A stretch of 51,307 nucleotides of DNA from an uncultured Candidatus Saccharibacteria bacterium (GCA_964489845.1 CAZAZV010000003.1:1-51307); one strand, 5' to 3'. Counted from the stretch's first letter, positions 15,848 to 33,442 are shown. Program-made: numbers and translations. The notes: generated from the sequence alone by a model not told the origin.

Positions 15848-17428
15848 TCAATTCTTGATAAATTTCGCTCTTACTTTCCTCACAAAATTGTTCACCGTAT
15901 TCCGCTCCGTTTCATTGAACCATGGGTAGTAGAGATAGAACCCTCCCACGGCGGTGACTGTCAAGCTCACTGCTATAACCTTGAGCCACGCATGATTAAA
16001 CAAGCTACTGACAAACCATCCTCCCATAAGTTGCAATGCGACCATCGGCAGAACACCGAGCATTGAGAATACAAACTTTCTCTTACCATCTTTCACGATC
16101 TGAAGGGCCTGATGCGGGATGTACCACACATCAATGGCCACTTCCCCAATGAGGAACCCCAACAGCACGCCAATGAGACCGAGTGGTTTGACGAGTATAA
16201 TCGCCAGTACAAGCCCGATACCGGTAGAGAGAATTCTCGAGAGGGCGAGTTTATTGTATTTGTTCGTCGCTTCTTGAAAATTCGCGTTGAAAAGCCAAAA
16301 TGCAAGAACGGGAACGAAAACGAGGAATAGGAGCCATAACCGTTCATCAAAAACGATTCTTCCGCCTGTCCATAATTGCATCAGGTCTTTCCCAATGAAA
16401 AGTAAAGCAGCCGATAAACTGATTGAGATATAGAGGACAACTTTCGAGAAAAGGTGGTGTATCAGCTGCAGTTTCTCATATTCCTCTCGCGCCTCACCGG
16501 CGGTGAGTTCTGGACTAATTGCGTTGTTTACGATACCAGTCAGCTTTTGGATAAGATTTGCCAGCGTTCGGTGCACACTGAATGTTACCACTGCAACAGA
16601 GCCGAGCGTGGCGCTTACCACGAGGATGCTTCCTTGCAGATATATCATATTAGCAAGCGGTATCATAAGGTATATGAGTCCCGGCACCACGAACGTTCTC
16701 CCCAATTTCCAATCAATCCGCGATGCCGAAAGGTCAATCTCCCGATGCTGTCTCAGGGCCGCAACCGTTAGTACGCCGGTAAACAAAAGGAGCAGGAAGA
16801 GATACACCGACGCCACGCTGACGAATCCCCCTTTCATCACCAGGACCAAGACAACGAATCCCACGAGTAGTAGTTCCCGTATATTCATCAGGAATTGTGT
16901 TTTGGGAAACTTGCCGGTCGTCGTATAGATGGCGATGGGGAAATTTGAAAGCGTACCGAGGATAATATATGTTCCCAGTATCAGCACAGAGAATTTCACC
17001 GACAGAGCACTCACTGTTGCGATGTGAAACCACTGCGAAAAGGGGGCTATGCACGCGAATATTATGAGGCAGACGAATAGTATCGCCGTAATAGCGGAGA
17101 ATATTCCAAAACCGCTCTTAAGTATTCTTGCATACTCTTTCGTATCTCCGTGCGAATATGCCTGAATCAGCTTGTTCGTCACATACCTTCCCATACCGAG
17201 GTCGGAAATGGAGAAATAACCAACAACGGAAAAAAGTGTGAGCCATTCGCCGTACATCGCCTTCCCCCATGCCCACAAAAAAAGCGGCACGAAAATTATC
17301 TGTTCCAGTGCGCCGATACCATATCCTACGAACGTCCAGAAGCTTCCCAGGGCGGTCCGCTTCGCAGCGCCGCCCACTGGGTATATGCTATTGGCTTCCG
17401 GTTCCTCCGAGAATCCGTTCATATGCAT
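15848..17428 (-). CDS. Second MOP-type polysaccharide flippase/biosynthesis membrane protein (526 aa)
   Basis: About 14 hydrophobic segments and low GC. The 5' end overlaps the upstream GT gene by 35-41 nt, so the start is uncertain. Confidence 0.8.
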   Translation of the reverse strand: MHMNGFSEEPEANSIYPVGGAAKRTALGSFWTFVGYGIGALEQIIFVPLFLWAWGKAMYGEWLTLFSVVGYFSISDLGMGRYVTNKLIQAYSHGDTKEYARILKSGFGIFSAITAILFVCLIIFACIAPFSQWFHIATVSALSVKFSVLILGTYIILGTLSNFPIAIYTTTGKFPKTQFLMNIRELLLVGFVVLVLVMKGGFVSVASVYLFLLLLFTGVLTVAALRQHREIDLSASRIDWKLGRTFVVPGLIYLMIPLANMIYLQGSILVVSATLGSVAVVTFSVHRTLANLIQKLTGIVNNAISPELTAGEAREEYEKLQLIHHLFSKVVLYISISLSAALLFIGKDLMQLWTGGRIVFDERLWLLFLVFVPVLAFWLFNANFQEATNKYNKLALSRILSTGIGLVLAIILVKPLGLIGVLLGFLIGEVAIDVWYIPHQALQIVKDGKRKFVFSMLGVLPMVALQLMGGWFVSSLFNHAWLKVIAVSLTVTAVGGFYLYYPWFNETERNTVNNFVRKVRAKFIKN

Positions 17429-18545
17429 GTATCACTTTATTCCCGTAATCGTCCCACGTAAATCCCGATGATACTCGCTCCTTCGCCGATTCGCCCATTT
17501 GCCTCAGCGTGTCGGGGTGTTCGTATAAATATGTCAATTTCTCTTTCAGTACATCAACTGCGCGAATCGGTATGACGAACCCGTCAATACCATCTCGCAC
17601 GATATCCCCCCCACCGGTATTTTCCGTGCAGATAACGGGCAAGCCGCATGCCATCGCCTGCGGTTGGACGAGGGCCAGGCCCTCCTCTACGGACATAATA
17701 ACGAATACGCTTCCCTGCGAGTAGTATTTGTACAATTCGCTCTGCGGCACATGCCCGACATACTTATAATGACCTTCGTATTGCTTAAAAAACGGCTTCA
17801 TTTCGTCTGTCATACCCCCAAGGAGCATGAGTTCCGAATTCGGCAAATTAAGTTCCGTAAATGCACGCAGGAGATAATGAACACCTTTCCTGATGCTCAT
17901 TCCTCCCGCGAACACGACTCTGAAAACGTCGTCTTCCTTCCCGACTTGGTGAAACGAAGACAAATCAACGCCGTAGGGGACTTGTATGATTTTCTCTTCG
18001 GGTACGTCTCGCTCAAGAAACGTCTGTTTCACGTACGAGGAGGGAATCGATATGTAATCGACTTCTTCGTATTCCTCGAGTTCCTTTTCGATAATTCTTC
18101 GGTCGGTTGGCTCGAATGGTATGCTAAATTTTTTATATTCCTCGTCCAAAATCTCGCTCTGGTACTCGATGTGCGAACTGCCGTGTTCCACGACGGTAAC
18201 AGCACCTTGCTGTTTCGCTTTCCGCAATGTGTGAAGAAAAACAGACGAGCCACCAATGACGATGTCTGCTGGTTTTAATTTTCTGCTTGCTCTCCTATCA
18301 AAAAGCTCGTGAATCGCATATTGGGGGTTATGCATATCACGCAGCCATTTCGGGAATTTCTGCCAGGCACGATACAGAATCTCCTTTGAGATAACAGAGT
18401 TTATTTTATCCTTCGGCATGTTGTATTTCACTACCTCAAATTTAGGATATGAGGTGATAAGCTGAGCAAGGTAATCTCGCTTCAACAATTCTTGAGCCAG
18501 GTTGAAAAGATGAAATCTGCCCGGCACCGAGATGGCGACTTTCAT
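17388..18545 (-). CDS. Glycosyltransferase (GT4-like)
   Basis: Start taken at MKVAISVPGRF. The C-terminal part reads EEGLALVQPQAMACGLPVICT. Confidence 0.8.
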   Translation of the reverse strand: MKVAISVPGRFHLFNLAQELLKRDYLAQLITSYPKFEVVKYNMPKDKINSVISKEILYRAWQKFPKWLRDMHNPQYAIHELFDRRASRKLKPADIVIGGSSVFLHTLRKAKQQGAVTVVEHGSSHIEYQSEILDEEYKKFSIPFEPTDRRIIEKELEEYEEVDYISIPSSYVKQTFLERDVPEEKIIQVPYGVDLSSFHQVGKEDDVFRVVFAGGMSIRKGVHYLLRAFTELNLPNSELMLLGGMTDEMKPFFKQYEGHYKYVGHVPQSELYKYYSQGSVFVIMSVEEGLALVQPQAMACGLPVICTENTGGGDIVRDGIDGFVIPIRAVDVLKEKLTYLYEHPDTLRQMGESAKERVSSGFTWDDYGNKVIHAYERILGGTGSQ

Positions 18546-19960
18546 GGATTCTTGGATGATTTCTTCATGATACCTATTAAGGTCCCCGCGCATTTTTCTA
18601 TGGCGAACGGAAGTGGAGCTAAAAAGCCTTTCATGTTGTGCGGGAAAATTTTGTATTCTGCGATTCTCAGTTCCTCAAATTCGCTTTTCATCAAAGCTGA
18701 CGTGTAATCGATTTCGGGAAGCCCTTGGGTCTTCTCTGGAATATTTATTGGCACTATCGAGATCGCGTATCCTCCGTCTCTCGTGACATCAAGCATCTTC
18801 TCCAGAAACTTAATCCTATCGTCCCTATTCTGATAATGCTCAACCGCTCCGACATGGAAGACTAGATCATATTGAGTCCTTTCACCGAAACTCAAGAAAT
18901 CTCCCATAAAAAGTTTCGCTGTTTTTTTAAGGAACCTTTCCGCCCTTGCGAGAACGTCGGGCGAAATGTCAATGCCAGCCGTCTCCCATCCTTCCGCCTG
19001 AAACATATCAAGATGCTTTCCTCCTCCAACGCCAATCTCGAAAACACTTCCCCTTGCGTCCGGTATTTTCCTGAAAATTCTGCGCCAGACTCTTGAAAAG
19101 CCCTTCGCGTTCCTGTCGTGAACATAGACCCCTTCTCTCTTCAAATCTTCTAGCCAAAAAGCGGATTCTTTCCTTCGTTTCACTCCTACAACCGCGATGG
19201 AGAGATGGGGAAAATTAAAAATCCTGGTGATGAGCGGGTCAAGGATAACTAAAATTCTCAAGGGGAAAACGATAAGCCAGGCGGCTTTGTAATTTATCCT
19301 ACGTTGCAGCCGCCGGTAGGATGCAATAAGTAGCTGGGAAATCAGGCCGGAAACATGTTCTTTCTTAGTCACCACAAACCCCGCTTCCCCCAATAGAAGC
19401 CCCATCTCCTCGTGAGTATAGCCCCATCTGACGTGACCGCCGTCTTCATACGTTGAGAGCGACACGGCATCGTCTCCCAATAGATGCTTCGCGTAGTTTT
19501 TGTACGGCGCCGTGAGCAACACTCTCCCGCCGGATTTCAAGAGAAGAGAAAAATCTTTCAAAAGTTTCTCGTCTCCCAAAATATGCTCGATGGTCTCGAA
19601 ACAGATAATTTGGTCGAAAAGACCAAGCTGCTCCGTCATGTTATCCAGTTGCCGCAGATCTCCCGTTATGAAACGAACGTTCTTGATTCCTAAAAGCGCC
19701 GCGCGTTCCGTGGCAATTTTATTCTTCCCCTCGTCGAAAGAGACGCCGATTGCTTCATTGCCCCTTTTCGCCGCGTAGAGCGCGAATGCGCCCGAGCCGC
19801 AACCGGCATCGAGCGTACGGAGTGGTCCCCTTTTCAGATTCCTTCTCAGCCACAGCCATCGGTCGAAAACAGCGGCGTCTCCGTGTAAAACGGTTGCCGG
19901 ATAACCGACTAGTTTTACTAATATATTCCTATTCATCACCTTAGCGGTTTTTTCTTTCAA
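18542..19960 (-). CDS. Tandem double class-I SAM-dependent methyltransferase (472 aa)
   Basis: Two motif-I copies, LDAGCGSGAFALY and VFEIGVGGGKHL, are separated by a hydrophobic stretch AAWLIVFPLRILVILDPLI. An alternative start MNRNIL lies at 19936. Confidence 0.8.
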   Translation of the reverse strand: MKEKTAKVMNRNILVKLVGYPATVLHGDAAVFDRWLWLRRNLKRGPLRTLDAGCGSGAFALYAAKRGNEAIGVSFDEGKNKIATERAALLGIKNVRFITGDLRQLDNMTEQLGLFDQIICFETIEHILGDEKLLKDFSLLLKSGGRVLLTAPYKNYAKHLLGDDAVSLSTYEDGGHVRWGYTHEEMGLLLGEAGFVVTKKEHVSGLISQLLIASYRRLQRRINYKAAWLIVFPLRILVILDPLITRIFNFPHLSIAVVGVKRRKESAFWLEDLKREGVYVHDRNAKGFSRVWRRIFRKIPDARGSVFEIGVGGGKHLDMFQAEGWETAGIDISPDVLARAERFLKKTAKLFMGDFLSFGERTQYDLVFHVGAVEHYQNRDDRIKFLEKMLDVTRDGGYAISIVPINIPEKTQGLPEIDYTSALMKSEFEELRIAEYKIFPHNMKGFLAPLPFAIEKCAGTLIGIMKKSSKNP

Positions 19961-20747
19961 AAATCAGATTGAGGGTTTTATCGTATCCAACAGCTCCCCT
20001 CCCGCTCAGTGAGAATCCGCAGCTCTCGAGCGTTTCGGTCACCTCCCGAGTAGTCGATTCGCCGACCTCGATTGCAACCGACTTGAGGCGGGGATTTGAA
20101 ATGGTTTCCCGGGCTCCTTGGATCACCGAGCTCTCAAATCCATCGACATCAATTTTGAGATACGTAGGAAAGATATTTTGCACTTTTACGAATTCGTCGA
20201 GACGTATCATCGCAACGTAATTCGGGATACCGAAACCTTTCGGCATGCCTTCGATGGCATAGTAGTTTGAATTTAGAGGGAATTTGTGGAATCCTGACGT
20301 TTCGGCAAGCGCAACGAAATAAACGTCTACATTCTTGATTCCATTCAGCGCGACGTTATTCACGTGGACAAATGTCGACATAAGGTCGACATCGAACGAG
20401 AGGATGTTCTTAGGGCCAGAGGTTTTAAGCGCCGCATACAGCGATTCCGTCCCGAAACCGCCTCCGACATCGAAGAAAACGTCGTCCGGCTTCATGCCGT
20501 CCATCCATTGTAGCATTTCGGGTTCCCGCACCTCCCATCTTTTGACAGTGTCATAGATCCCCACTTCGCCCAAGGGTATCAATGCTCTGATTTTCACGCC
20601 TTTCACGGTTACCTTTGCTATGGGGGAAATTCTTGAAAAGAGCATACATACCCAGCGGCTGGGAAATTTCAAAAGAAGGAATCCCGCACAATTATTCAAA
20701 GATTCGAACAGCGGCTTTATGACGTTTGATTCTAAGAAATGTCTCAT
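19941..20747 (-). CDS. FkbM-family methyltransferase
   Basis: FFDVGGGFGTESLY and LKIDVDGFESSVIQG. Confidence 0.85.
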   Translation of the reverse strand: MRHFLESNVIKPLFESLNNCAGFLLLKFPSRWVCMLFSRISPIAKVTVKGVKIRALIPLGEVGIYDTVKRWEVREPEMLQWMDGMKPDDVFFDVGGGFGTESLYAALKTSGPKNILSFDVDLMSTFVHVNNVALNGIKNVDVYFVALAETSGFHKFPLNSNYYAIEGMPKGFGIPNYVAMIRLDEFVKVQNIFPTYLKIDVDGFESSVIQGARETISNPRLKSVAIEVGESTTREVTETLESCGFSLSGRGAVGYDKTLNLIFERKNR

Positions 20748-21679
20748 TAATGATGCTCTAAATCATTGGCTATACGATTCGCCACACCTTCTACCGTGAG
20801 ATTGTTCAATCCCAAGAGATAGTCCCGAGAACCGGAGACGTGTAGGAATTTGTCCTCTGTACCCATCCGAACGACACGGTATGGTAATCCTCTGTCGGTA
20901 ATTATCTCGGATATTGCCGAGCTAAGCCCACCAATTTTCGTATGTTCCTCCAGGACATAGATTATCCGTCGTTCTTTAAACAAACCAAGTATTGCTTTTA
21001 CATCAAGCGGCTTTACGGTGGGTAGAGAGACGAGAGAGGGCGCTACACCCTTTGACCGCAATTTCTCCGCAACTTCTTTAGCAAAAAAGAGCATACTTCC
21101 GGTTGAAATGATCATGGGTCCTTTGCCTCTCTCGACAAAAATCGGTTCTCCAATCGTTACCTCGGGTTTCTGAGAATGGATAAAAACATCAGGACCGCTC
21201 CTCGTGCGCCCGATTCTAATATACGCGGGTCCTTGGAAAGAGATTGATAGTCTTGTCACCGCCTCCGCCTCGTAGAGATCGCCCGGGCACAAGATTGTCA
21301 TATTAGGGAGGGCTCGCATTGCAGCGACATCCTCAAGCGCAAAATGACTGACGCCATATTGGTTTAAGGTAAATCCCGAAGAAGTGCCGACGATTTTCAC
21401 ATCAAGGTTATTTGAAGCGATATCCAGACGAATTTGTTCAAGACATCGAAGTGTGACGAAGGATGCTTGTGCATAGAGAAAAACGGTATAGTCGTTCAGG
21501 GCGAGTCCCGCGGAAATACCTGCGGCGTTTGCCTCCGAGACACCAGTGTTTATAAATCGGGTGGGAAATTTATCTCGTAACGCTTCGAATGTATTGAAAC
21601 CCATATCAGCGGTCACGAGCATAATACGGTCGTTCTCCTCCATCATCGCCATTAAGGTCTTTACGAATGCGCCTCTCAT
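20747..21679 (-). CDS. Transketolase, C-terminal (pyrimidine-binding) subunit
   Basis: 310 aa with FINTGVSEANAAGISAGLA; its start overlaps the stop of the upstream N-terminal subunit gene by 4 nt. Confidence 0.9.
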   Translation of the reverse strand: MRGAFVKTLMAMMEENDRIMLVTADMGFNTFEALRDKFPTRFINTGVSEANAAGISAGLALNDYTVFLYAQASFVTLRCLEQIRLDIASNNLDVKIVGTSSGFTLNQYGVSHFALEDVAAMRALPNMTILCPGDLYEAEAVTRLSISFQGPAYIRIGRTRSGPDVFIHSQKPEVTIGEPIFVERGKGPMIISTGSMLFFAKEVAEKLRSKGVAPSLVSLPTVKPLDVKAILGLFKERRIIYVLEEHTKIGGLSSAISEIITDRGLPYRVVRMGTEDKFLHVSGSRDYLLGLNNLTVEGVANRIANDLEHH

Positions 21680-22515
21680 ATTTTTTCGGATAATTCTTCA
21701 AGCGCCTGTTTGAATTCCTGTTCGTCGGGATGCTTATAATGCCATTCATTCCTGTTCTCGATGAAAGAAACACCTTTCCCCTTCACGGTATGCGCTATAA
21801 TCACCGTTGGTTTATCCTGCACTAAAGGAATCTTAGAAAACGCTTTCTCCAGAGAAGTAAAATCGTTACCCTGCGTCTCGATGACCGCCCAGTTGAAAGC
21901 TTTGAATTTATCCGAGAGCGGTTCCGGGTCTAAGATGTCTTTCACTCTTCCGAACGATTGCCAACCGTTGTAATCAACCACTACTACGAGATTATCCAAT
22001 TTGCGATGACCAGAGAAGAAAATTGCTTCCCATGTCGAGCCCTCATCCAATTCTCCGTCGCTTACTACGACAAATACTTTAAAAGAGGCATTTCTTTGTT
22101 TGCCGGCCAGTGCCATTCCCGTACCAACCGGCAAGCCGTGCCCCATAGAGCCGGTCGTCGCTTCTATGCCGGGGACACCGCTCAATGTCGTGATACCGAT
22201 AAATCTGCTGCCGTCGGTACAATACGAATCAAGTTCCTGCATCGAGAAAAATCCTTTGTCCGCAAGTACGGAATACAATGCCGCCGCGGCCCATCCCTTA
22301 CTTAAGACAAGGCGGTCTCGCTCCGGGTCGTGAGGTTGTTTCGAATTTACTCTGAGAACCGAATCGTAAAGATAGAGGAGAATATCCAATACCGAGTATG
22401 ATGACGCGATATGAGATGCTTTTGCGGCATAAATCATGCGGAGAACCTGTCTTCGCAATTCTCTGGCTTTCTTTTCTAAACTAAGAAGCTTCTCCTGTCG
22501 CATAATATCAGGCAT
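21676..22515 (-). CDS. Transketolase, N-terminal (ThDP-binding) subunit
   Basis: ASHIASSYSVLDIL and VVVSDGELDEGSTWEA (the GDG-like ThDP motif). Start taken at MPDIMRQE; the longer track ORF runs into the upstream gene. Confidence 0.85.
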   Translation of the reverse strand: MPDIMRQEKLLSLEKKARELRRQVLRMIYAAKASHIASSYSVLDILLYLYDSVLRVNSKQPHDPERDRLVLSKGWAAAALYSVLADKGFFSMQELDSYCTDGSRFIGITTLSGVPGIEATTGSMGHGLPVGTGMALAGKQRNASFKVFVVVSDGELDEGSTWEAIFFSGHRKLDNLVVVVDYNGWQSFGRVKDILDPEPLSDKFKAFNWAVIETQGNDFTSLEKAFSKIPLVQDKPTVIIAHTVKGKGVSFIENRNEWHYKHPDEQEFKQALEELSEKI

Positions 22516-23449
22516 ATTCGTGCAGTTTTGTCCATTGTATAAGCAGTGATAACCCTTGAGAAAGAGTGTGTGTAGGTATCCAATCGAGTAATAATTTCGC
22601 TTTTGAGATATCCGCAACCCACTTCGTCGGTTCGTGTTGTCGCGGAGGAATATTCCCGTAACGTGCTTGTATTTCCACCCCGGAGATATGCTCTACTATA
22701 CGCACACATTCGGCAATTGAATGTTCTTCGCCAGAAGCGATATTGAGAATACCTCCCTTAATATTCTTAATTTTCTCTATTGCCATGAGATACGCCTCGA
22801 TTACATCTTCGATGAATACGAAATCCCTGATAATCGTGGGCGAGGGGGCTTCGAACCGACCTTCTCGCAACGCAGCATGAATTAAAGTAGGCATGAGTCG
22901 ATGGTTCCCTTCGAAATATCCGTATGGAGAGAAAAGGCGCATGGTAACTATTGGAAGACCCTGTTCACGAGCAAGTGATTGCGCGTACATCGTCGCAGTT
23001 GCTTTCGTCACACCGTATAGATTATTCGGTTCCAGTATGTCTGTCTCTTTCATCGGTGTGTCTTTCTCGCCGTATTCCGAGCTGCTGCCGGTATTAATGA
23101 AGCAATTGAAACCCGTTTCAGCGCAGGCGTTCAATAGATTGACAGTCCCTCGTACATTCGTGTCAATGGTCTTTTCCACGTCCCGCTCACGACCTCGATA
23201 CGCACCGTATGTGGCGAAATGAAGAATCGTATCGGGTCTTATGCTTTTGATAAGTTCGGATGTGGAACGGGAGTCGGTTAGGTCCGTTTCGTGGAAAGAC
23301 GCTTTTTGCAGGACGTCTTTTATTCGCCAAATGTTCGATTCTTCCCTTGTGGTAATGTGAACTTCATGGTCGAGTTCCACGAATTTCCTTACAAAATTAC
23401 TCCCTATGAAACCCGTTCCTCCTGTAATGAGAACTTTCATTGCCGTCAC
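22508..23449 (-). CDS. NAD-dependent sugar epimerase/reductase (extended SDR)
   Basis: VLITGGTGFIGSN and the catalytic YGVTK. Confidence 0.85.
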   Translation of the reverse strand: MTAMKVLITGGTGFIGSNFVRKFVELDHEVHITTREESNIWRIKDVLQKASFHETDLTDSRSTSELIKSIRPDTILHFATYGAYRGRERDVEKTIDTNVRGTVNLLNACAETGFNCFINTGSSSEYGEKDTPMKETDILEPNNLYGVTKATATMYAQSLAREQGLPIVTMRLFSPYGYFEGNHRLMPTLIHAALREGRFEAPSPTIIRDFVFIEDVIEAYLMAIEKIKNIKGGILNIASGEEHSIAECVRIVEHISGVEIQARYGNIPPRQHEPTKWVADISKAKLLLDWIPTHTLSQGLSLLIQWTKLHEYA

Positions 23450-24675
23450 CCATTTTCCTTTACGTACACCTCCATATTCTCGAAAACATACTGGAGCATA
23501 CTATCGGTCATCCCGTGATGGAGCCCGAGCAGAAATGAATTCTTCAGTATCATATCGGCGTTTTTCAGGTCTCCTATTCTCCGGTATGCGACATCTCGAT
23601 ATGCGGGGTGCTTCAGGATATTCCCGGAGAACAGCGGGCGCGTTTGAATCTTGCGGTGTTCCAGATAGCGGACCAATTCGTTTCTCTTGAGCGGCGAAGT
23701 TTCCTTGATGGTGACGGGGAATGCGAGCCAGTTCGTCGTGCTCCCCTGAAGCGGCTCGGGGAGTATGAAATGCTCCGCAAATGAGCCAAGAAACCCGTAC
23801 AAGGCGTTGAAATTATTGCGTCGCTTCTCCAGGAAACCACTCAGGCGCTCCAGCTGCTTGAGGCCGAAGGCGGCTTGCATCTCCGTCGGTTTGAAGTTGT
23901 AGCCGCGCTCCACGAAGACGAACGCGCTGTCGTACGCTTCTCCGTCGATCTCAAATGTCGAAAGGCGGGCATCTATGCCGTTTTCTCTGGCGGGTATGCC
24001 GCGCCCCCAATCTCTAAAGAGCCGCGCGTGCTCCCGCACTGCTTTGTCGTCCGTCATCAGCATACCACCTGCACCGCCTGCCGTAATGACGTGGGAGGCA
24101 TAGAAACTCGTCGTCGTGATATCGCTCCACGTGCCCGAGGGTTGCCCATCTATTGTTCCGCCGATGGTGTCACAGCTGTCTTCGATGAAAACAAGGTGAT
24201 GTTTGTCGCAGAACGCCCTTATGTCGCGCGTTGGGACGAAATTCCCGATGAGGTGAGGTGCCATAACCGCAACGGTTTTCGGAGAATACGCCGCTTCAAG
24301 CTGGTCCGCGTCGATGGTGTAGCGACTCATCACTACGTCGACGAAGACGGGAGTGAGGCCGGCTTGTACAATCGGCGCAACCGTCGTGTTGAAATTGCAT
24401 GCGGGCGTAATAACTTCGCTTCCCTTCGGGAAACGCATCGCCTCCAGCGCGATGAGGTTCGCTGACGAACCGGAGTTGACGAAGAGCCCGGTTTCTTTGC
24501 CGAATATGCCGGCGATTTTCCGTTCGAACTCCGCGGTTATTTCACCGACCGTCAACCAGCCCTTGCGAAGCACGGCGTCGACCGCTTGTATCTCCGCTTC
24601 GTCGAAGGCGTCCGTCGTATTCGGCGCATACCATACCCAATCCTCTCCCGGTTTGAATTCGGTGCGTTTTTCCAT
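23446..24675 (-). CDS. DegT/DnrJ/EryC1-family enzyme with His replacing the Schiff-base Lys: candidate NDP-4-keto-6-deoxyhexose 3-dehydrase (ColD/E1-like)
   Basis: VNSGSSANL and FIEDSCDTIGG are present. SFYASHVITAGGAGG aligns to the aminotransferase SFxxxKxxxxGEGG with H at the K position. The protein has only 3 Cys. Confidence 0.75.
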   Translation of the reverse strand: MEKRTEFKPGEDWVWYAPNTTDAFDEAEIQAVDAVLRKGWLTVGEITAEFERKIAGIFGKETGLFVNSGSSANLIALEAMRFPKGSEVITPACNFNTTVAPIVQAGLTPVFVDVVMSRYTIDADQLEAAYSPKTVAVMAPHLIGNFVPTRDIRAFCDKHHLVFIEDSCDTIGGTIDGQPSGTWSDITTTSFYASHVITAGGAGGMLMTDDKAVREHARLFRDWGRGIPARENGIDARLSTFEIDGEAYDSAFVFVERGYNFKPTEMQAAFGLKQLERLSGFLEKRRNNFNALYGFLGSFAEHFILPEPLQGSTTNWLAFPVTIKETSPLKRNELVRYLEHRKIQTRPLFSGNILKHPAYRDVAYRRIGDLKNADMILKNSFLLGLHHGMTDSMLQYVFENMEVYVKENG

Positions 24676-24676
24676 A

Positions 24677-25738
24677 TTAGTGCATTTCTATTTTACCTTC
24701 TTCTGTTTCTATCGGAACACAGCGCATCCATATTTTATCTTTCCACCAATCTTCGTTATTGATGTACCAATCAATTGTTTTCTTTAATCCGTCCTCGAAA
24801 CTTATCTGCGGCTCCCATCCCACTACGCGCTTTATTTTGGACGTATCGGCGGTGTGTCGGAATACCTGTCCCGGTCGGTCGCCAACATTCAGCGCGTAAG
24901 AGGTGTGTTTCACTTTATCCCCCTTGGTGTTCATTATTCTCAGAATGGTATCGGCGATCTCGTTTACCGACCGATGAGTTCCCGACCCCACATTGAAAAC
25001 TTCTCCCACTACCTGCCCGTTCGGGGCTGATAGTATCATATCGAGCGCGCGCACGAGGTCGTCCACATAGGTGAAGTCCCGGCTACTCTCGCCGCTTCCG
25101 TGAACGGTCAGTGGTTCACCCAGGATACAACTGGTTATGAAACGGGGTATTAATTTCTCCAGATGCTGTTTGGGTCCGAACATATTGAACGGCCTCACGA
25201 TGACCGCCGGTATCTTGTACGTCGTGATGTAGGAATATACCAGCCGGTCAGCCCCCACCTTCGCCGCCGCATAGGGGCTTTGAGGATTCAACGGATGATA
25301 CTCGTCCATTTTAGGATTTACCGCAGTGCCATATACCTCACTCGTAGATATATGAATGAATTTCTCTATCCTGTGCCTGTTGTTCAAGACCGCGTTTGCC
25401 ACCCGCTGCGTGCCAATAACGTCTGTTTCGAAAAAGATGGCATCGTCGAAAATAGAACGAGTGACGTGCGTCTCCGCTGCAAAATGAAGCACGATATCCG
25501 CTTGAGCGACGAGATGTTCCACCAACTTTGCGTTTTTCACATCGCCGTACCAGAAAACGAACCGCTTATCATTGCGCATCTCTGCGGGGATGTTCCGAAT
25601 ATCGGCGGCGTACGTCAGGACATCCAGAACGATGAATCGGCAGTCAAGATACTTCTTAAACAAAAACGCAAGCGCGTTGCTGCCGATAAAACCCACTCCA
25701 CCCGTAATCAGTATCGTTTTGGCGTATGGTTGAGGCAT
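24677..25738 (-). CDS. rfbB: NDP-glucose 4,6-dehydratase (RfbB-like)
   Basis: ILITGGVGFIGSN, LTYAADIRN, HFAAETHVTRSI and ISTSEVYG. Confidence 0.85.
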   Translation of the reverse strand: MPQPYAKTILITGGVGFIGSNALAFLFKKYLDCRFIVLDVLTYAADIRNIPAEMRNDKRFVFWYGDVKNAKLVEHLVAQADIVLHFAAETHVTRSIFDDAIFFETDVIGTQRVANAVLNNRHRIEKFIHISTSEVYGTAVNPKMDEYHPLNPQSPYAAAKVGADRLVYSYITTYKIPAVIVRPFNMFGPKQHLEKLIPRFITSCILGEPLTVHGSGESSRDFTYVDDLVRALDMILSAPNGQVVGEVFNVGSGTHRSVNEIADTILRIMNTKGDKVKHTSYALNVGDRPGQVFRHTADTSKIKRVVGWEPQISFEDGLKKTIDWYINNEDWWKDKIWMRCVPIETEEGKIEMH

Positions 25739-27001
25739 AGTTTATATCAGCTTACTTCATGGCTTCAAAAATTTCAATTATGGCACGAACCCTGTCAGTG
25801 AAGAGATTCCCGCCATGGATGACCCGCTCGCGACCCCGCTCTGCGATTTTCTTCCGCTCGGATTCGTGCTGCAGATAAAAATCCACTTTGCGTTTCATCT
25901 CTTCGTATGATTCGAAGAATTCCGCCTCTTCGCCTTCCTTGAAATACTCCCCGATTTTGCTTGTACGGTAATGCAGCATAAACGCGCCGGATGCGGGGAT
26001 TTCAAAGCTGCGGCAGGCAGTCACCTCGTCGTTGTGCTCCCGCACGAATGCCAGTGCGATTTTGCTCGATATGAGCACCCTCGACATCTCATGGCACATT
26101 ACCGCTTTAAATTGTATGCATCCTTTTTTGTACAAGCAGGAATCTTTCGGGTATTTCCCCCAATTGTTGCCGTAAATCTTGATATTGTATCCGTCCCTGC
26201 AAAGCCGCTCAAGGTATTCCGACCGTCCTTCCTTCGCGTACGTACCGATGAAAACGATGTCGGCTCCGAGGTTTTTATCGGGCTTCAAATCCTCAATCGA
26301 GCCGTGACACTCTCTATCCGCCGCACACGGTAAGAACACCGATTTCACCGCACCCATCTTCAGTAGTTCACCGGCATTCACCCAGTTAAATGACAGATGG
26401 CAATCGTACAACGGAATGGACGCATAGAAAAAGTCGCTGCACGTTTTGGGGAAAAGTACGTAATCGGGGTACCATGAAAACACTTTGGCGATTTTCCTGA
26501 GCGTCTTGACCGTCGCCGGTTTTATAAACGTCGGTTTGAAGAGGAGTATCAAGTCCGGCTGAAACGCTTCGGCTTCTTTCACGAGTCCTCTATTCAGCTT
26601 CCCGGTAAAGAAATAGTGAGGTGTTTTCAGAAATTTGATGATGATGCGGTTGAAGAAATGAAATTTGAAATAATCGTTGAAGGCGACGGTTTTTACCGCT
26701 GTGCCCGTTTCTTTAAACGCTTTCACGGAAAGATCAAACGACCCTCCCTGACCCGCATCACCGCCAATGAGTACTTTCAAGTCATCATTTCGCGGCCCCA
26801 CTAGAACATCCCCGTCACTCATGATTCTCGGAGCGTATCCCCTGGAAGTGAGAAACGCCGCCACCCGCCCGCGTAATGCATCGCTGTGTATGGAGACGAA
26901 AAGCAGCGGCTTGCAGGTTTCGAGCAGATGTTCCGAGCCCCGCAAGATGTTGAACTCTTCTCCCTCGGCGTCGATTTTTATGACGCGTGGAGGAGCGATT
27001 T

Positions 27002-27294
27002 TCTTTTCTTTTAGCAAGTCGTCTAGGCTTGAAACCCGCACGGCGAGGTCCCCAGCGCCCCCGCTTATCGCGCCTGTCGCGCCGGAACCCCTGAAGTGAG
27101 TCGTTCCGCTCCGCACTGATACTGCGGACTCGACGACTTCCGTATTCCTGCAATCGTTCAGGACAAGATGCTTTTTCAGGAATTCGATATTTTCCGGCAA
27201 CGGCTCGAATGCGTACACTTTCCCTTCGTTGCCGACCAGTCTCGACGCGAGCAATGTGTATATCCCGACATTCGCACCGATGTCGTAAACAACG
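27002..27294. repeat. Tandem duplication, copy 1 (293 bp)
   Basis: Identical base for base to 27295-27587, by full manual comparison. Confidence 0.95.
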
Positions 27295-27587
27295 TCTTTT
27301 CTTTTAGCAAGTCGTCTAGGCTTGAAACCCGCACGGCGAGGTCCCCAGCGCCCCCGCTTATCGCGCCTGTCGCGCCGGAACCCCTGAAGTGAGTCGTTCC
27401 GCTCCGCACTGATACTGCGGACTCGACGACTTCCGTATTCCTGCAATCGTTCAGGACAAGATGCTTTTTCAGGAATTCGATATTTTCCGGCAACGGCTCG
27501 AATGCGTACACTTTCCCTTCGTTGCCGACCAGTCTCGACGCGAGCAATGTGTATATCCCGACATTCGCACCGATGTCGTAAACAACG
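27295..27587. repeat. Tandem duplication, copy 2 (293 bp)
   Basis: Identical to 27002-27294. The match extends 2 nt further (tc microhomology) and then diverges (27297 t versus 27590 a). Confidence 0.95.
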
Positions 27588-27794
27588 TCACCGTTTTTGA
27601 CTCTCTCGGCGAACCATTTTTGCTCTTCCGCTTCGTATGTACCGAGCCAGTACCCGTTCACCCCGCTGCCTTTTATCCACTTCGCGCCCCGCAACGGGCC
27701 ACGCCGTATTTTTATCACCGTCCCCGCCGGGATAAGTTTCAACGGCAAGCGGATGAGCTTCCCGAGAAACGCTTCGCTCGATGTGCGGGGTGGA

Positions 27795-28958
27795 TTAAAC
27801 ATGATGCCGTAATGCCCTCAGGAGACCTTCGATGTCTTTTTCATAACTGTACCCTTGGATTATCTTGGATGATTCTTCGCCGAATCTCCGGCGCATGGTT
27901 TCATCCTCTATGAGTTTCTTCAATTTTTGTGACAGTTCCTCAATGTCGCCCACGGGAAATCTGAAGCCGTTCACGCCATCGTGCACCAGGTCAAACCCCG
28001 AGCCGGGCAGGTCTGAAATCACTACGGGGAGTCCGAAATTCATTGCCTCATTCACGACCAGACCCCACGTTTCCCCCGCACCAGACGGGAGTACGAAGAT
28101 GTCCGCGAGCGTGTAGTATGCAGGCAGTTCGGTTTGATTTTTAAATCCGACGAAATGAACGTTCTCTAGCTTGTGCTGCTGCACATACGCTTCCAGAGCA
28201 AGGCGCAGCTCGCCGTCACCGGTGAATATCACATGAACGGCCGGCGCATGACAACTTGCCTCAAGCAGCGCGAATGCTTTCAGTGTGTCAAGTGGGCGCT
28301 TCTTGGGAATAAGTTTGCCGACGGAGAGCACCACGATGTCATTCGGACCGATACTATTTTTCTCCCGCAACTCATCGCGCTTCGGTTTCAACTCATGCGC
28401 CGTTTCTTGAAACCGCATGTTGTCCACCGCATACGGCGCAAAGAAAAGTTTTGTGTCCGGGACTCCGTAGTACTGGTAGAATTTCTTGTTCTCCTCGCCG
28501 ATGTAGAGGAATCTGTCAATGAGCTTGAAAAGCACGCCGCCCAGCAGCACCTTCTTTACAAATCTTCGTTTTGGTTCTTTCATCAGTTCTTGGTTCAGGG
28601 GACTTTCACCGAGCAAGAGTGTTTTCATCCCTAATAGTTTCGAAAGGAAAATTGCTCCCCAGTTTGTAAAAGAATTCCATCCGTATACAAGTAGGAAATT
28701 CGGCTTATCTTCTACCAGCCACTTCAACAAGTTGGTTACGCCTTTCAGGAAATGATAACGGTAGCCGTCGAGAAGCGGTACGTCCCATTTAATTTCTCTA
28801 TTGAATTCCTTATCGAAAAACCCCTCACCGCGGATACTCACATCGCTTTGAAAGTAAACCCTCAACTCCAGTTCCTCTCGTGCTGAAATCTTCCGGAAGA
28901 GCGGCGCCTGGTACTGGATGGGATGCGAGGTCAGTATGGCAAGCTTGATTTTACTCAT
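27795..28958 (-). CDS. Glycosyltransferase family 4
   Basis: Start at MSKIKLAILTSHP, an ATGA overlap with the upstream methyltransferase gene. The C-terminal part reads GETWGLVVNEAMNFGLPVVISD. Confidence 0.85.
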   Translation of the reverse strand: MSKIKLAILTSHPIQYQAPLFRKISAREELELRVYFQSDVSIRGEGFFDKEFNREIKWDVPLLDGYRYHFLKGVTNLLKWLVEDKPNFLLVYGWNSFTNWGAIFLSKLLGMKTLLLGESPLNQELMKEPKRRFVKKVLLGGVLFKLIDRFLYIGEENKKFYQYYGVPDTKLFFAPYAVDNMRFQETAHELKPKRDELREKNSIGPNDIVVLSVGKLIPKKRPLDTLKAFALLEASCHAPAVHVIFTGDGELRLALEAYVQQHKLENVHFVGFKNQTELPAYYTLADIFVLPSGAGETWGLVVNEAMNFGLPVVISDLPGSGFDLVHDGVNGFRFPVGDIEELSQKLKKLIEDETMRRRFGEESSKIIQGYSYEKDIEGLLRALRHHV

Positions 28959-29677
28959 TGTTTCGCTTCGACAATCAGATTCTGGGTGAAAATATCGCCC
29001 GGGGTACCCGTCTCGATACGTAAGAAGAGCTTCGAGCACTGTTCGATGCACCACCAGAGGACGTACCTGATAAACGATTTCGCCCCATGAACAACGGGGC
29101 GCTGTGGATATACGTTTATTTCCCGAAACCCCGCGACTTTCAACAACTGCTTTATGCTTTGAGCGGTGAAGGCCGTTTCATGAGTGAAGTCACCGTGCCG
29201 CAGCCGCCCCCAGAAAAGATTCCCCGCGTTGACCGTCTGCGCAACGAATGCGCCATGTTCCCCAAGTGATTCACGTACTATCTCAACGAGTTCCAGCAAC
29301 TCGTCTTTGGGGAAATGCTCGAGAAGGTCTCGCGCGAACACGAGGTCGAATTTTCCTCTCTCCCTGCCTAGAAACTCCCTCACGTCGGCAACTCTTACGT
29401 TCCGTATGCCCAGTTTCCCCGCTCGCTCCATCTGTTCCTTACTCACGTCTATGCCCTCTGCGTTCTCGTACCCTCGTTCTTGGAGCCAGTACACGAACCC
29501 CCCGTCGCCGCATCCCGCATCCAGGATTCTGGCACGCTTCTCGCGGGGCAGAAACCTCCCGTAATAACTCTCCCACGTTACGAAATGCCCCCGTATATCT
29601 GCGAGAGATGGCCTGTGATACAAATCACCCGTGTGCGTGCTTATATATCGCTCGTAAAACTTATCTCGGTAACTCAT
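28955..29677 (-). CDS. Class-I SAM-dependent methyltransferase
   Basis: ILDAGCGDGGFVYWL followed by DLVFARDLLEH. Confidence 0.85.
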   Translation of the reverse strand: MSYRDKFYERYISTHTGDLYHRPSLADIRGHFVTWESYYGRFLPREKRARILDAGCGDGGFVYWLQERGYENAEGIDVSKEQMERAGKLGIRNVRVADVREFLGRERGKFDLVFARDLLEHFPKDELLELVEIVRESLGEHGAFVAQTVNAGNLFWGRLRHGDFTHETAFTAQSIKQLLKVAGFREINVYPQRPVVHGAKSFIRYVLWWCIEQCSKLFLRIETGTPGDIFTQNLIVEAKQ

Positions 29678-30704
29678 TGTGGTCCCGGGAACCCACGTCA
29701 GCCTCCACCATCATCCTGACCAATTCATCAAATTTGGTTTTCGGTTCCCACGCGAGTTCTCTCTTTGCTTTCGAAAAGTCAGCTAAAAGGTTTTCTACAT
29801 CCAGCGGCCTGAAATATGCCTTGTTTACCGAAACCAATTCTTTTCCCGTTTCCCCGTCGAAGCCCCTTTCTTCGACCCCCCTGCCGCGCCACTCGATGTT
29901 AATATCTACACTGCCAAAAGCTGCTTCCACGAAATCTCGCACGCGATAATTCTTGCCCGAACCGATCACGTAGTCATTTGGTTTCCCCCGTTGAAGCATG
30001 AGCCACATAGCTTCTACGTAGTCACCTGCGAATCCCCAATCCCTTCGACTATCGAGATTCCCCAACTCCAATTTCTCGGCTTTACCTTCCTTGATTCTCG
30101 CCACCGTTGACGTGATCTTGCGGGTAACAAACTCAAAGCCGCGCCGGGGCGACTCATGATTGAAAAGTATTCCCGAGCATGAGAATATGCCGTATGCCTC
30201 CCGATAAAATTTGGTCAGGTGAAAAGATGCCAGCTTGGATATCGCATAGGGGGATACTGGATGAAAAGGCGTGCGTTCATTCTGTGGAGACTCTTCCACA
30301 CTTCCAAACATCTCGCTGGTACCTGCGAAATAGAATTTACAGTCGGATCTCAGGTTCTTGATAGAATCCAACAAGTAATGAGTCCCGTTTATGTTGGTCT
30401 CGAGGGTTCCAAAATCATCCTTAAACGAAAGGGCTACCTGGCTCTGGGAAGCAAGGTGGTATATTTCATCTGGCTGAACAGTGTGAATCATCCTCCATAC
30501 GGTGGGGAGATCCCTCACGTCTCCGTAATGGACGGTTATCTTATCCAGGATGTGGTTTATTCTCGAAAATCTCTGACGTTGGTCCTCAAAGGCTGCTCTC
30601 CGGACAAGTCCATGAACCTCGTAGCCCTTTTTCAGAAGAAGCTCCGCCAGATATGAACCGTCCTGCCCCGTTAAACCCGTTATAATAGCTCTTTTTGTGT
30701 CCAT
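29661..30704 (-). CDS. gmd: GDP-mannose 4,6-dehydratase
   Basis: AIITGLTGQDGSYLAELLLKKGYEVHG, SPYAISK and GILFNHESPRRG. Confidence 0.92.
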   Translation of the reverse strand: MDTKRAIITGLTGQDGSYLAELLLKKGYEVHGLVRRAAFEDQRQRFSRINHILDKITVHYGDVRDLPTVWRMIHTVQPDEIYHLASQSQVALSFKDDFGTLETNINGTHYLLDSIKNLRSDCKFYFAGTSEMFGSVEESPQNERTPFHPVSPYAISKLASFHLTKFYREAYGIFSCSGILFNHESPRRGFEFVTRKITSTVARIKEGKAEKLELGNLDSRRDWGFAGDYVEAMWLMLQRGKPNDYVIGSGKNYRVRDFVEAAFGSVDINIEWRGRGVEERGFDGETGKELVSVNKAYFRPLDVENLLADFSKAKRELAWEPKTKFDELVRMMVEADVGSRDHNELPR

Positions 30705-31756: not shown

Positions 31757-32640
31757 AATGCTTGACTTCGGTTCGTGGCGATGAAGTCTCGAATATGCTC
31801 CTGCAGGTCGCGTTTCGGAGTCCAGCCCAGTGCCCGCACTTTGCTTGTGTCTATATCCGAATCCATCCTATTCCCCGCCCGTGCCGGGAGCATCGTTACA
31901 GGGGCGCCGAACATTTGAGCCACTTCCAGTATCGAATGCTTGCCCTCCGAGCCGATGCCGAACCCATCTCCCACACCATCGTCGCCGACCAAGAGCAAGC
32001 CGGTGATGATGTCGTCAATGTGCGTGAAATTTCTCTTTTGCGTCCCCGGTGACACGACGGTCAGCGGTTTACCCTCACGATACAATTCTTTGAAAATGCC
32101 GATAACTGTCGCGTACGGTCCAGTTGTAATCTCGCCCGGCCCGTACACGTTATAGAAATACGCGATGGCGTGCGGGACACCAAACCACGAGCCGTAATTA
32201 TTTACCAGCTCCGAATTACTCGCCTTCGTCCAGGCGTACGGGCTCTGATTTCTGCCCAAACCCCCATCCCCGAATTTCGTACTCGAGCCGGCGTACACGA
32301 TTCGCGTGTTGCGCTTGCGGCAAAATTCCAAAACGGCGAATGTGCCCGCCTTATTCAAGTCCCAGACGAGCGGAACATCATCAAAGCTTTTTTCCACCCG
32401 CGAATATTCGCCAAGGTGGAAAACGATATCGGGTATTTCCGGAATCAGTCGCTCTATGTCTTTGGTGTGCCCCTCGCGATAGTCGGCTCCGGGAACATGA
32501 TTGTCTTTGGAGCCGGTGAAGTAATTGTCGAGTGAAATGACTCGGTCCCCACGGGCAACAAGTGCCCTCACTAGGTGTGAGCCGATGAAGCCGGCGCCCC
32601 CCGTTACTAAGACTGTCTTTGTTGTTCCCTTCTTATCCAT
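31753..32640 (-). CDS. NAD-dependent sugar-nucleotide decarboxylase/epimerase (UDP-glucuronate decarboxylase-like SDR)
   Basis: VLVTGGAGFIGSH, LDNYFTGSKDN and YAWTK. Confidence 0.8.
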   Translation of the reverse strand: MDKKGTTKTVLVTGGAGFIGSHLVRALVARGDRVISLDNYFTGSKDNHVPGADYREGHTKDIERLIPEIPDIVFHLGEYSRVEKSFDDVPLVWDLNKAGTFAVLEFCRKRNTRIVYAGSSTKFGDGGLGRNQSPYAWTKASNSELVNNYGSWFGVPHAIAYFYNVYGPGEITTGPYATVIGIFKELYREGKPLTVVSPGTQKRNFTHIDDIITGLLLVGDDGVGDGFGIGSEGKHSILEVAQMFGAPVTMLPARAGNRMDSDIDTSKVRALGWTPKRDLQEHIRDFIATNRSQAL

Positions 32641-33442
32641 GCGTCTCGCGCAGTTTTTCGTTCAATTCGTCTGCTTTCTTGTGCAGCTGCAAATCGACAC
32701 CGATGGAGTCGGCAAATTGTATGAATGCTTTCATGTCTTTCGGGAAACAGGCGCTGTTTTGAAGGCCGATACCGCCGTACCCGCGGTAGTCGTCGCACAA
32801 AACGTCGAGATGGCTTCCGCCGATGCGCGCATCGCGGCTCACCGCTTCACGGACGTTATCGTAATTCACGCCGAGCTTCTCGCACACGTCGTACATCTGA
32901 TTCGCGAAAATCACCCGCGTTGCAAGATACGTGTTGCCGAAAAATTTCACCATTTCCGCTTCCGTCGCATGGAGCACTTTCTCGTACGGGGCGCGAGGCA
33001 GAAGTTCGAAAAGTTCCTCCGCGCATTTCCGGTGTGCTTCGTCGACAATCCCCATAATCTGCCGTTCGGGATTCAGGAAATCGTTCACCGCCGTCTTCGC
33101 TCGCAAGAATTCCGGGCTGAAGAGAATAATTTTTTTCGGATGCCTCTTCTGAAATCGCTCCGTGGAACCGGGCGTGATCGTCGACTTTATGACCACCACT
33201 TTCCCGTCATCGATGTTTTCCAGGGTCTCCACAACCGCCGAGTCGTCGTAGCGGTTTTCCTCAAAATGAAACGGCGTCGGGACGGCGACGAAAATAATAT
33301 TCGCTTGGTTTACTTCTTCCGGGGAACCGAGTTCTTTGTATTTGTCGTAGACAAAAAGCCGGAAGCGCTCCGGATGGTTCTCGAACCACTCGCGGAGCGC
33401 GCCGCCGACGTATCCCACGCCGATAATGCCTATCTTAACCAT
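32633..33442 (-). CDS. UDP-glucose/GDP-mannose dehydrogenase-family protein, short form without the C-terminal nucleotide-sugar domain (269 aa)
   Basis: IGIIGVGYVGGA, EFLRAKTAV and the catalytic-Cys motif SACFPKD. The protein ends about 30 aa after that Cys. Confidence 0.75.
   Translation of the reverse strand: MVKIGIIGVGYVGGALREWFENHPERFRLFVYDKYKELGSPEEVNQANIIFVAVPTPFHFEENRYDDSAVVETLENIDDGKVVVIKSTITPGSTERFQKRHPKKIILFSPEFLRAKTAVNDFLNPERQIMGIVDEAHRKCAEELFELLPRAPYEKVLHATEAEMVKFFGNTYLATRVIFANQMYDVCEKLGVNYDNVREAVSRDARIGGSHLDVLCDDYRGYGGIGLQNSACFPKDMKAFIQFADSIGVDLQLHKKADELNEKLRETHG

Follow-up and report, generated by a model that had tools for sequence, protein, structure and literature searches.

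We propose, with moderate confidence, that a run of six genes on a 51,307-nt stretch of DNA from an uncultured Candidatus Saccharibacteria bacterium (GCA_964489845.1, CAZAZV010000003.1:1-51307) encodes the synthesis of a nucleotide-activated 3,6-dideoxyhexose branched at C4 and destined for a surface glycan. The pathway predicted from these genes would be yersiniose-like, with a carboligase of the transketolase (TK) superfamily taking the place of the enzyme YerE. The whole stretch, to which we will refer as the window, is an entire contig (C3), one of 21 in a genome of 578,579 bp with a completeness of 97.7%.

The six genes are tightly packed on the minus strand. The run opens with an RmlB-like nucleoside diphosphate (NDP)-glucose 4,6-dehydratase (DH; 24677..25738, 353 residues, GDP_Man_Dehyd/Epimerase fold, model TIGR01181), followed after a spacer of 1 nt by a DegT-family protein of 409 residues (23446..24675, model NF011936), predicted to be a 3-dehydrase similar to E1 but devoid of its iron-sulphur (Fe-S) site. 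An extended short-chain dehydrogenase/reductase (SDR; 22508..23449, 313 residues, Epimerase family) comes next, at a junction that can be read as a GTGA overlap or as a spacer of 5 nt; GalE-like and reductase models rank first on it, all below their cut-offs. The SDR gene overlaps by 8 nt the gene for the N-terminal (PP-domain) subunit of a split TK (TKN; 21676..22515, ATG at 22515, PF00456), which in turn shares an ATGA with the gene for the Pyr/C-terminal subunit (TKC; 20747..21679, PF02779 and PF02780), so that TKC starts on the stop of TKN. In the same way, an FkbM-family methyltransferase gene (19941..20747; TIGR01444, 51 bits, above the cut-off of 37.7) starts on the TKC stop through a TAATG overlap; from the SDR through the FkbM gene, no overlap or spacer is longer than 8 nt. 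The first-pass annotation of the window, made from the sequence alone, had listed these genes, including the SDR, the two-subunit TK and the translationally coupled FkbM gene; all of them are confirmed as intact minus-strand open reading frames (ORFs), and the expected domains were found.

In the proposed pathway, the RmlB-like enzyme would, judging from its family membership, convert NDP-glucose (dTDP or UDP) into NDP-4-keto-6-deoxyglucose. The DegT-family enzyme, which carries a histidine (His195) at the catalytic position, would then remove the 3-hydroxyl group by means of pyridoxamine 5'-phosphate (PMP), probably through a ColD-like hydrolysis of the enamine with regeneration of PMP from glutamate, to give NDP-4-keto-3,6-dideoxyhexose. 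The TK pair would add a two-carbon unit bound to thiamine diphosphate (ThDP) to the C4 ketone, generating a tertiary alcohol; an extended chain is a less likely outcome than a branch at C4. By analogy with YerF, the SDR may reduce the side-chain carbonyl with NAD(P)H; in fact, ThDP-dependent branching followed by NAD(P)H-dependent reduction has been described as the unifying scheme for acyl-branched sugars (PMC9306805). Finally, the FkbM protein could O-methylate the product, and the neighbouring GT4 glycosyltransferase (17388..18593, minus strand, Glycos_transf_1), encoded downstream of the cassette, is a candidate for the transfer of the modified sugar. The predicted role of the TK, the addition of a two-carbon unit to a 3,6-dideoxy-4-keto sugar, draws support from the changes in the substrate pocket and from a synteny that holds in several phyla.

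Conservation of the cassette

The order DH, E1-like gene, SDR, TKN and TKC was found again in four other genomes of the Candidate Phyla Radiation (CPR; loci L014-L017), and since the identical order recurs in independent genomes, the arrangement is not a product of chance. In one of these loci (L017), the agreement with the window extends further, through an FkbM gene and a class-I methyltransferase to the same GT4. In the window, the class-I S-adenosylmethionine-dependent methyltransferase is the next gene of the operon (18542..19960, minus strand) and has two domains, as two stretches matching Pfam Methyltransf_25/11/23; its homologue stands in the equivalent position in L017/L110, at 56% identity. 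The GT4 also has homologues at 60-68% identity behind the cassette in L015 and L017, as well as in G004. An FkbM-domain gene comes straight after the TK pair in L017 and in a locus of Rugamonas (L026); in L016, one other gene stands between them. The FkbM and SDR proteins of the window are only 27% and 23% identical, respectively, to their Rugamonas counterparts, which points to a common family and position and does not imply orthology.

TK residues are given here in E. coli numbering, as mapped by alignment to E. coli TktA. Scanning GTDB species representatives for the motif with a tryptophan at position 66 (W66), which characterizes the TK of the window, yielded 16 loci. A His-type DegT gene lies within 10 kb in 11 of them, in some cases with the Cys loop of E1 and in others without it, and both H461 and D469 are absent from all 16. 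An SDR gene stands directly upstream of TKN in most of these and of the other non-canonical TK loci. The hosts of the TK family belong to the CPR, with relatives in Proteobacteria, Bacteroidota and Acidobacteriota. At least 120 relatives of the cassette were recognized among metagenome proteins; on the other hand, among 400 genomes sampled evenly across the phylum, there was no close TKC orthologue, only three matches at 38-40% identity. The cassette is thus sporadic, and rare among species representatives.

A related TK type occurs in cultured Rugamonas and Duganella in the arrangement rfbF-rfbG-rfbH-SDR-TK-FkbM. In Rugamonas aquatica FT29W (NZ_WHUG01000019.1, 5725-14249), the order is rfbF-rfbG-rfbH-SDR-TKN-TKC-FkbM, followed by a hexapeptide acetyltransferase; the first three genes score 472, 500 and 755 bits on their respective models, and the rfbH product has the Cys loop. 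The TK of this strain keeps H66 and H100 and carries H461G and D469L. Related SDR-TKN-TKC triads were also found in Duganella sp. 1411, Neorhizobium sp. JUb45 and Zwartia hollandica LF4-65.

The first-pass annotation had described the dehydratase as RfbB-like, and the profile searches agree. TIGR01181 (dTDP-glucose 4,6-dehydratase) is its best NCBIfam model, at 321.5 bits and thus below the cut-off of 365; a CDP-type dehydratase model gives 73 bits only, and its best solved relatives in the Protein Data Bank (PDB) are dTDP-glucose 4,6-dehydratases (E 7e-73). In five related CPR loci and in G004, the immediate upstream neighbour of the E1-like gene is a DH homologue (68-75% identity); L018 has only a relative at 36% identity, about 0.8 kb upstream. 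Gmd had also been recorded in the window (29661-30704, minus strand), and it is indeed present, scoring 430.7 bits on TIGR01472 against a cut-off of 415. Nonetheless, it is not conserved with the cassette among the related loci and so is no constant partner. Because the constant partner is an RmlB-like dehydratase and not Gmd, the dehydrase substrate is more likely to be NDP-4-keto-6-deoxyglucose than GDP-4-keto-6-deoxymannose, the product of Gmd.

These gene neighbourhoods bear directly on the main rival to the proposed pathway, in which the TK pair and the SDR tailor a different nucleotide sugar. The acceptor might be NDP-4-keto-6-deoxyglucose that still has its 3-hydroxyl group, the sugar produced by Gmd, or a keto sugar that the SDR itself generates, with another branch position or a chain extension as possible outcomes. 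The TK would still be a sugar-tailoring carboligase. Such a role is suggested by SDR-TKN-TKC triads that have no His-type DegT gene within 10 kb (Neorhizobium, Zwartia, Bordetella-like and Acidobacteriota loci, L113, L117 and L120), by the location of Gmd 5 kb from the cassette in the window, and by the miharamycin case, in which an oxidoreductase has been proposed to make the keto acceptor (PMC12247030). However, the TK genes of the window and of its closest relatives come directly after the DH and E1-like pair within a single operon, Gmd does not travel with the cassette, and the Rugamonas triad stands right behind a complete rfbF-rfbG-rfbH set. We therefore regard a different sugar as unlikely, though it is the alternative that we take most seriously.

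A predicted 3-dehydrase without an iron-sulphur site

The first-pass annotation had read a histidine in the DegT-family protein where sugar aminotransferases have the lysine that binds pyridoxal 5'-phosphate, and alignment places it at the catalytic site. The motif SFYASHVITAGGAGG comprises residues 190-204, and its His195 aligns with His220 of E1 (PDB 3BCX) and with the catalytic histidine of ColD; the query stretch SFYASH lies over SFYPAH of E1, and the same position is a lysine in 3BB8, the H220K mutant of E1. The count of exactly three cysteines in the whole protein also stands: the four-Cys [2Fe-2S] motif of E1 is absent, and its cluster loop RDCYCAPGCDNTCKK is represented by RGIPARENGIDARL. 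The histidine is shared by every one of the 120 closest cluster representatives (57-74% identity), the Cys loop by none. Because the histidine is invariant and the loop cleanly absent throughout, the group appears to be a stable functional subfamily and not a damaged E1. True E1s, which retain EDCCD and the Cys loop, adjoin related TKs in Rugamonas, Duganella, a Bacteroidota metagenome-assembled genome (MAG) and an acidobacterium.

By overall similarity, the protein is closer to E1 than to ColD. It aligns over its full length with Yersinia E1 (E 1.5e-88, 301 bits), compared with an E-value of 1e-53 and 187 bits for ColD, and reaches 402.7 bits on the RfbH model NF011936, below the curated equivalog cut-off of 423. 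E1 and SpnQ require electron transfer through an Fe-S centre, whereas ColD works by enamine hydrolysis, regenerates PMP from glutamate and needs no reductase (PMC8987622). The earlier remark that no E3 reductase gene lies nearby can be extended to the genome, in which no protein with a Fer2 domain (PF00111) was matched, so that no E3-type partner is available. Since both the Cys loop and this partner are missing, turnover of the ColD type is likely. The ColD-like assignment of the first-pass annotation would thus hold for the chemistry, but not for the sequence, which is nearer to E1/RfbH. Both routes, E1-type and ColD-type, lead to the identical product, NDP-4-keto-3,6-dideoxyhexose.

An enzyme of this ancestry could also have another fate, either acting as a 4-aminotransferase, in the manner of SpnQ without its reductase, or being inactive for want of an electron donor, so that a 4-amino or a plain 6-deoxy sugar would result. 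Its nearest relatives by sequence, the E1/SpnQ-type enzymes, are normally dependent on Fe-S, and SpnQ does transaminate when the reductase is absent (PMC8987622). But the same source describes ColD as a case of reductase-free 3-deoxygenation on this fold, and reports no transaminase activity for E1 and ColD under SpnQ-like conditions. The invariant histidine and the clean loss of the Cys loop among the closest representatives speak for a class maintained in function. Furthermore, genuine Lys-type aminotransferase paralogues, with SFFANK or SFYPGK, coexist in the loci of the true E1s mentioned above. A transaminating or inactive DegT-family protein is, on this evidence, quite improbable.

A split transketolase with a remodelled pocket

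Both TK subunits are readily recognized from solved split TKs (TKN against 6YAK, E 5e-64; TKC against 6YAJ, E 1e-46). The pair retains H26, D155, N185, H261, R358, E411, H473 and R520, a set that includes the ThDP/Mg-binding and cofactor-activating residues D155, N185 and E411 together with the catalytic H26, H261 and H473. The residues replaced are H66W and H100I in TKN and S385N, H461S and D469Y in TKC. These five positions are the canonical recognition set for a phosphorylated, hydroxylated sugar, and none of them is kept. The alignment thus indicates that the ThDP machinery is intact and that the pocket has lost the means to recognize a sugar phosphate. The changes are not peculiar to the window, as W66 is present in all of the 120 closest TKN homologues (56-73% identity), and position 100 is occupied by I in 92 of them, G in 14, S in 6, T in 5 and C in 2, with His in none.

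Several of these substitutions have counterparts in engineered TKs. H461 binds the substrate phosphate, and H461S raises the activity on non-phosphorylated, non-hydroxylated aldehydes, on which D469Y shows about 8-fold the wild-type specific activity (PMC3657141). As regards the donor, the H102L/H474S variant of Geobacillus TK (TKgst) accepts pyruvate and 2-oxobutyrate (PMC7696235). The loss of His100 and His66 in the window hints weakly at a donor without a C1 hydroxyl, e.g., pyruvate, which would leave an acetyl branch.

The genome encodes a second split TK, on contig C1, which is canonical (signature HHHSNH / RSEHDHR), keeps all the residues compared, and whose subunits are 38% and 34% identical to the pair of the window. 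Its subunit genes (C1:18087-18911 and C1:46610-47524) are not adjacent but some 28 kb apart. A housekeeping function for the window pair was considered and rejected on account of this canonical pair, which leaves the former surplus to central metabolism. The first-pass annotation had proposed a phylogeny as a check on the pair, and it falls among non-canonical TKs: in a quick maximum-likelihood tree of the concatenated subunits of 72 split-TK pairs, 22 non-canonical pairs are set apart from the 50 others, of which 44 are fully canonical, with a Shimodaira-Hasegawa-like approximate likelihood ratio test (SH-aLRT) support of 96, and the pair of the window lies within a fully supported CPR subclade.

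Locus L016, from a Minisyncoccia MAG (JBEKVQ010000002.1), contains an RmlC-like 3,5-epimerase followed by a fused TK of 602 residues of a third non-canonical type (L016:17729-20218; signature HQV.. / RPEGSHR), in addition to an orthologous W66-type split TK; a related split pair follows the DH and E1-like genes in L013. One locus may thus hold two different sugar-tailoring TKs.

The extent of the remodelling invites a reading in which the enzyme has some other ThDP-dependent role, making a non-sugar substituent, or cleaving or decarboxylating a keto acid to yield a product that is attached to the glycan, so that its link to the dehydrase would be one of shared regulation only. With so many active-site residues changed, its chemistry cannot simply be read across from TK, and TKC scores about equally on DXS and TK models. 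Nonetheless, the residues of ligation and cleavage (H26, H261 and H473) are those of TK, the adjacency to 3-dehydrases is close and repeated across phyla, and the locus offers no gene to attach such a substituent; little credence can be given to a role of this kind. Weaker still, to the point of being barely credible, is a second TK of the pentose-phosphate type that supplies sugar phosphates as glycan precursors, as would fit the database name "transketolase" of all the members and the retention of R358, R520 and the ThDP machinery, but which is opposed by the canonical split TK elsewhere in the 578-kb genome, by the replacement of S385, H461, D469, H66 and H100, and by the grouping of the pair with non-canonical TKs beside sugar-nucleotide genes, away from the canonical ones.

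Weighing the proposed pathway

A number of observations speak against the proposed synthesis of a C4-branched 3,6-dideoxyhexose, or against parts of it. G004, L013 and L018 carry the DH and E1-like pair without this type of TK, which shows the dehydrase to be independent of the TK. The SDR, generic and GalE-like, may instead work as an epimerase or as a 4-ketoreductase, either ahead of the TK or in its place. The two arginines with which TK binds phosphate (R358 and R520) are kept, which makes a phosphorylated ligand possible; they could equally bind the diphosphate of an NDP-sugar. No TK has been shown in vitro to work with a ketone acceptor (PMC12247030). Concerning the donor, the argument from H100I is indirect, and the alignment with E. 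coli DXS, a natural user of pyruvate, is ambiguous at TK position 100 and was not used as evidence.

The supply of NDP-sugars also counts on this side. The genome has a single sugar-1-phosphate nucleotidylyltransferase, which is GlmU/AglF-like (C8:16327-16647, locus L004) and whose gene adjoins that of a bifunctional phosphoglucose/phosphomannose isomerase; RmlA, RfbF and ManC were not found in the genome, with no RfbF match above the cut-off, despite the presence of Gmd and an RmlB-like dehydratase in the locus. Either all the NDP-sugars come from this one nucleotidylyltransferase, which would have to be promiscuous, or they are taken from a host.

Relation to known systems

The closest parallel is the pathway to yersiniose A in Yersinia pseudotuberculosis (DdhA-D (E1/E3), YerE and YerF), which shares the logic of a 4,6-dehydratase, a PMP-dependent 3-dehydrase, ThDP-dependent branching at C4 and NAD(P)H-dependent reduction of the side chain (PMC9306805, PMC12247030). 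It differs in that the dehydrase of the window has neither Fe-S centre nor E3, the dehydratase is RmlB-like and not CDP-type, and an FkbM gene is attached. The carboligases also differ. YerE, to be compared along with the YerE-like enzymes ErwE, MMAR_2332 and MygE, is a flavoenzyme of the decarboxylase superfamily similar to acetohydroxyacid synthase (TPP_enzyme_N/M/C), whereas the window encodes two subunits with Transketolase_N, Transket_pyr and Transketolase_C domains. A YerE-type ThDP enzyme (TPP_enzyme_C, PF02775) was not found in the genome, the sole match being sub-threshold and to the TKN gene itself. As in YerE-like contexts, the TK genes adjoin a reductase-family gene and the predicted genes for NDP-4-keto-3,6-dideoxyhexose.

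The first-pass annotation knew of no characterised pathway with exactly this combination of genes. This needs to be qualified, since the logic mirrors that of YerE/YerF and split TKs have been proposed in sugar tailoring, yet without proof (PMC12247030, PMC9306805). In the account of Krug et al. (2024) given in PMC12247030, split-gene TKs are proposed only for miharamycin and amipurimycin, and the 13 further candidates are all from Streptomyces, none of them characterised in vitro. As described there, these enzymes, with a proposed transfer of hydroxyacetyl, resemble the TK of the window in being two-gene TKs within a sugar-tailoring cluster, with a keto sugar as proposed acceptor. By the same description, they are set apart by belonging to actinomycete antibiotic clusters and to high-carbon sugars of nucleosides, whereas the TK of the window belongs to surface-glycan loci and is coupled to a 3-dehydrase. 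A literature search on transketolases in O-antigen clusters gave no match.

Another group of heteromeric ThDP enzymes, the alpha-keto-acid dehydrogenase-type alphaKADH2 enzymes of aldgarose, kibdelomycin (KbDH-alpha/beta) and avilamycin, likewise transfers two carbons, from pyruvate, to a deoxy-keto sugar (PMC12247030); they are members of the E1_dh superfamily and of actinomycete secondary metabolism, in contrast to the Transketolase_N/Transket_pyr architecture of the window. As for the dehydrase, the likeness to ColD consists of the histidine in place of the Schiff-base lysine and the lack of an Fe-S cluster, with a reductase-free, glutamate-dependent regeneration of PMP to be expected. Against this stand the lower score on ColD and the RmlB-like partner, whereas the substrate of ColD, which acts in concert with ColC, is the Gmd product. 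E1/RfbH/DdhC is the closest solved and curated relative, with His195 equivalent to His220; the enzyme of the window departs from it in the lost [2Fe-2S] Cys loop, the absence of E3 and of an RfbF match above the cut-off, an adjacent dehydratase that is RmlB-like and not of the CDP type (RfbG), and a score under the curated cut-off.

Genomic setting and other features of the locus

The cassette forms part of a glycan locus that occupies about 14.7 to 35.3 kb of the window on the minus strand and includes GT4 and GT2 glycosyltransferases, several methyltransferases, Gmd, further SDRs and a Wzy_C-family protein. The closest homologues of its proteins are labelled Jorgensen-, Brenner-, Wolfe- or Yanofskybacteria, or "Patescibacteria group", and on these grounds the host is a member of the CPR/Patescibacteria, of the Parcubacteria type. 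The G+C content of the glycan island (16-32 kb) is 0.47-0.52, compared with 0.54-0.59 in the flanks and 0.56 genome-wide. This lower value suggests an island acquired horizontally, and the sporadic distribution of the cassette is also consistent with acquisition. A contaminating contig was considered and rejected, as the housekeeping flanks (ClpB, HtrA, RF2 and FtsEX) match the G+C of the genome and only the 16-32 kb island is lower.

Some other features of the window deserve mention. A segment of 293 nt is perfectly duplicated in tandem (27002-27294 and 27295-27587, 100% identical). As this length is not a multiple of three, the duplication splits a gene into the overlapping ORFs 27176-27802 and 25752-27446, where relatives have a single FkbM-glycosyltransferase fusion; it is either a very recent disruptive event or an assembly artefact. 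The ORF at 32633-33442 (269 residues) is probably truncated, since of a UDP-glucose/GDP-mannose dehydrogenase it comprises no more than the central domain and a portion of the N-terminal one. An ORF of 195 residues with no Pfam match (33455-34042) adjoins the Wzy_C gene, beside which it is kept in L013, L016 and G004 (35-38% identity). Two large ORFs have no Pfam or NCBIfam match, one in the glycan locus (15848-17428, 526 residues) and the other beside it (5504-6979, 491 residues).

Significance

To our knowledge, YerE-like enzymes and those of the alpha-keto-acid dehydrogenase type are the only ones for which a ThDP-dependent conversion of keto sugars into tertiary alcohols has been shown. 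By their sequence features, the proteins described here would belong with none of E1, ColD, canonical TK and YerE, and the logic of their pathway would still be that of yersiniose. We tentatively put forward, at somewhat less than even confidence, a wider proposal: that remodelled split TKs lacking H461 and D469 may be a third independent class of enzymes branching nucleotide-activated keto sugars, in surface glycans from the CPR to Proteobacteria. The subtype of the window (W66, no His100) would use a non-hydroxylated 2-oxo acid, e.g., pyruvate, for acetyl transfer to a ketone, and would be partnered upstream by an Fe-S-free, E1-like dehydrase that operates by hydrolysis of the ColD type.

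The natural substitutions H461S, D469Y and H100 to an aliphatic residue match those that engineers have selected for non-phosphorylated acceptors and non-hydroxylated donors. With at least 120 close relatives in metagenomes and distant ones in cultured Rugamonas, Duganella, Neorhizobium and Zwartia, this is a large, natural and experimentally tractable family, and with it a group of predicted E1-like 3-dehydrases without an Fe-S cluster is defined. A symbiont-type genome of 578 kb devotes roughly 20 kb to an elaborate surface glycan, which is probably methylated and C-branched.

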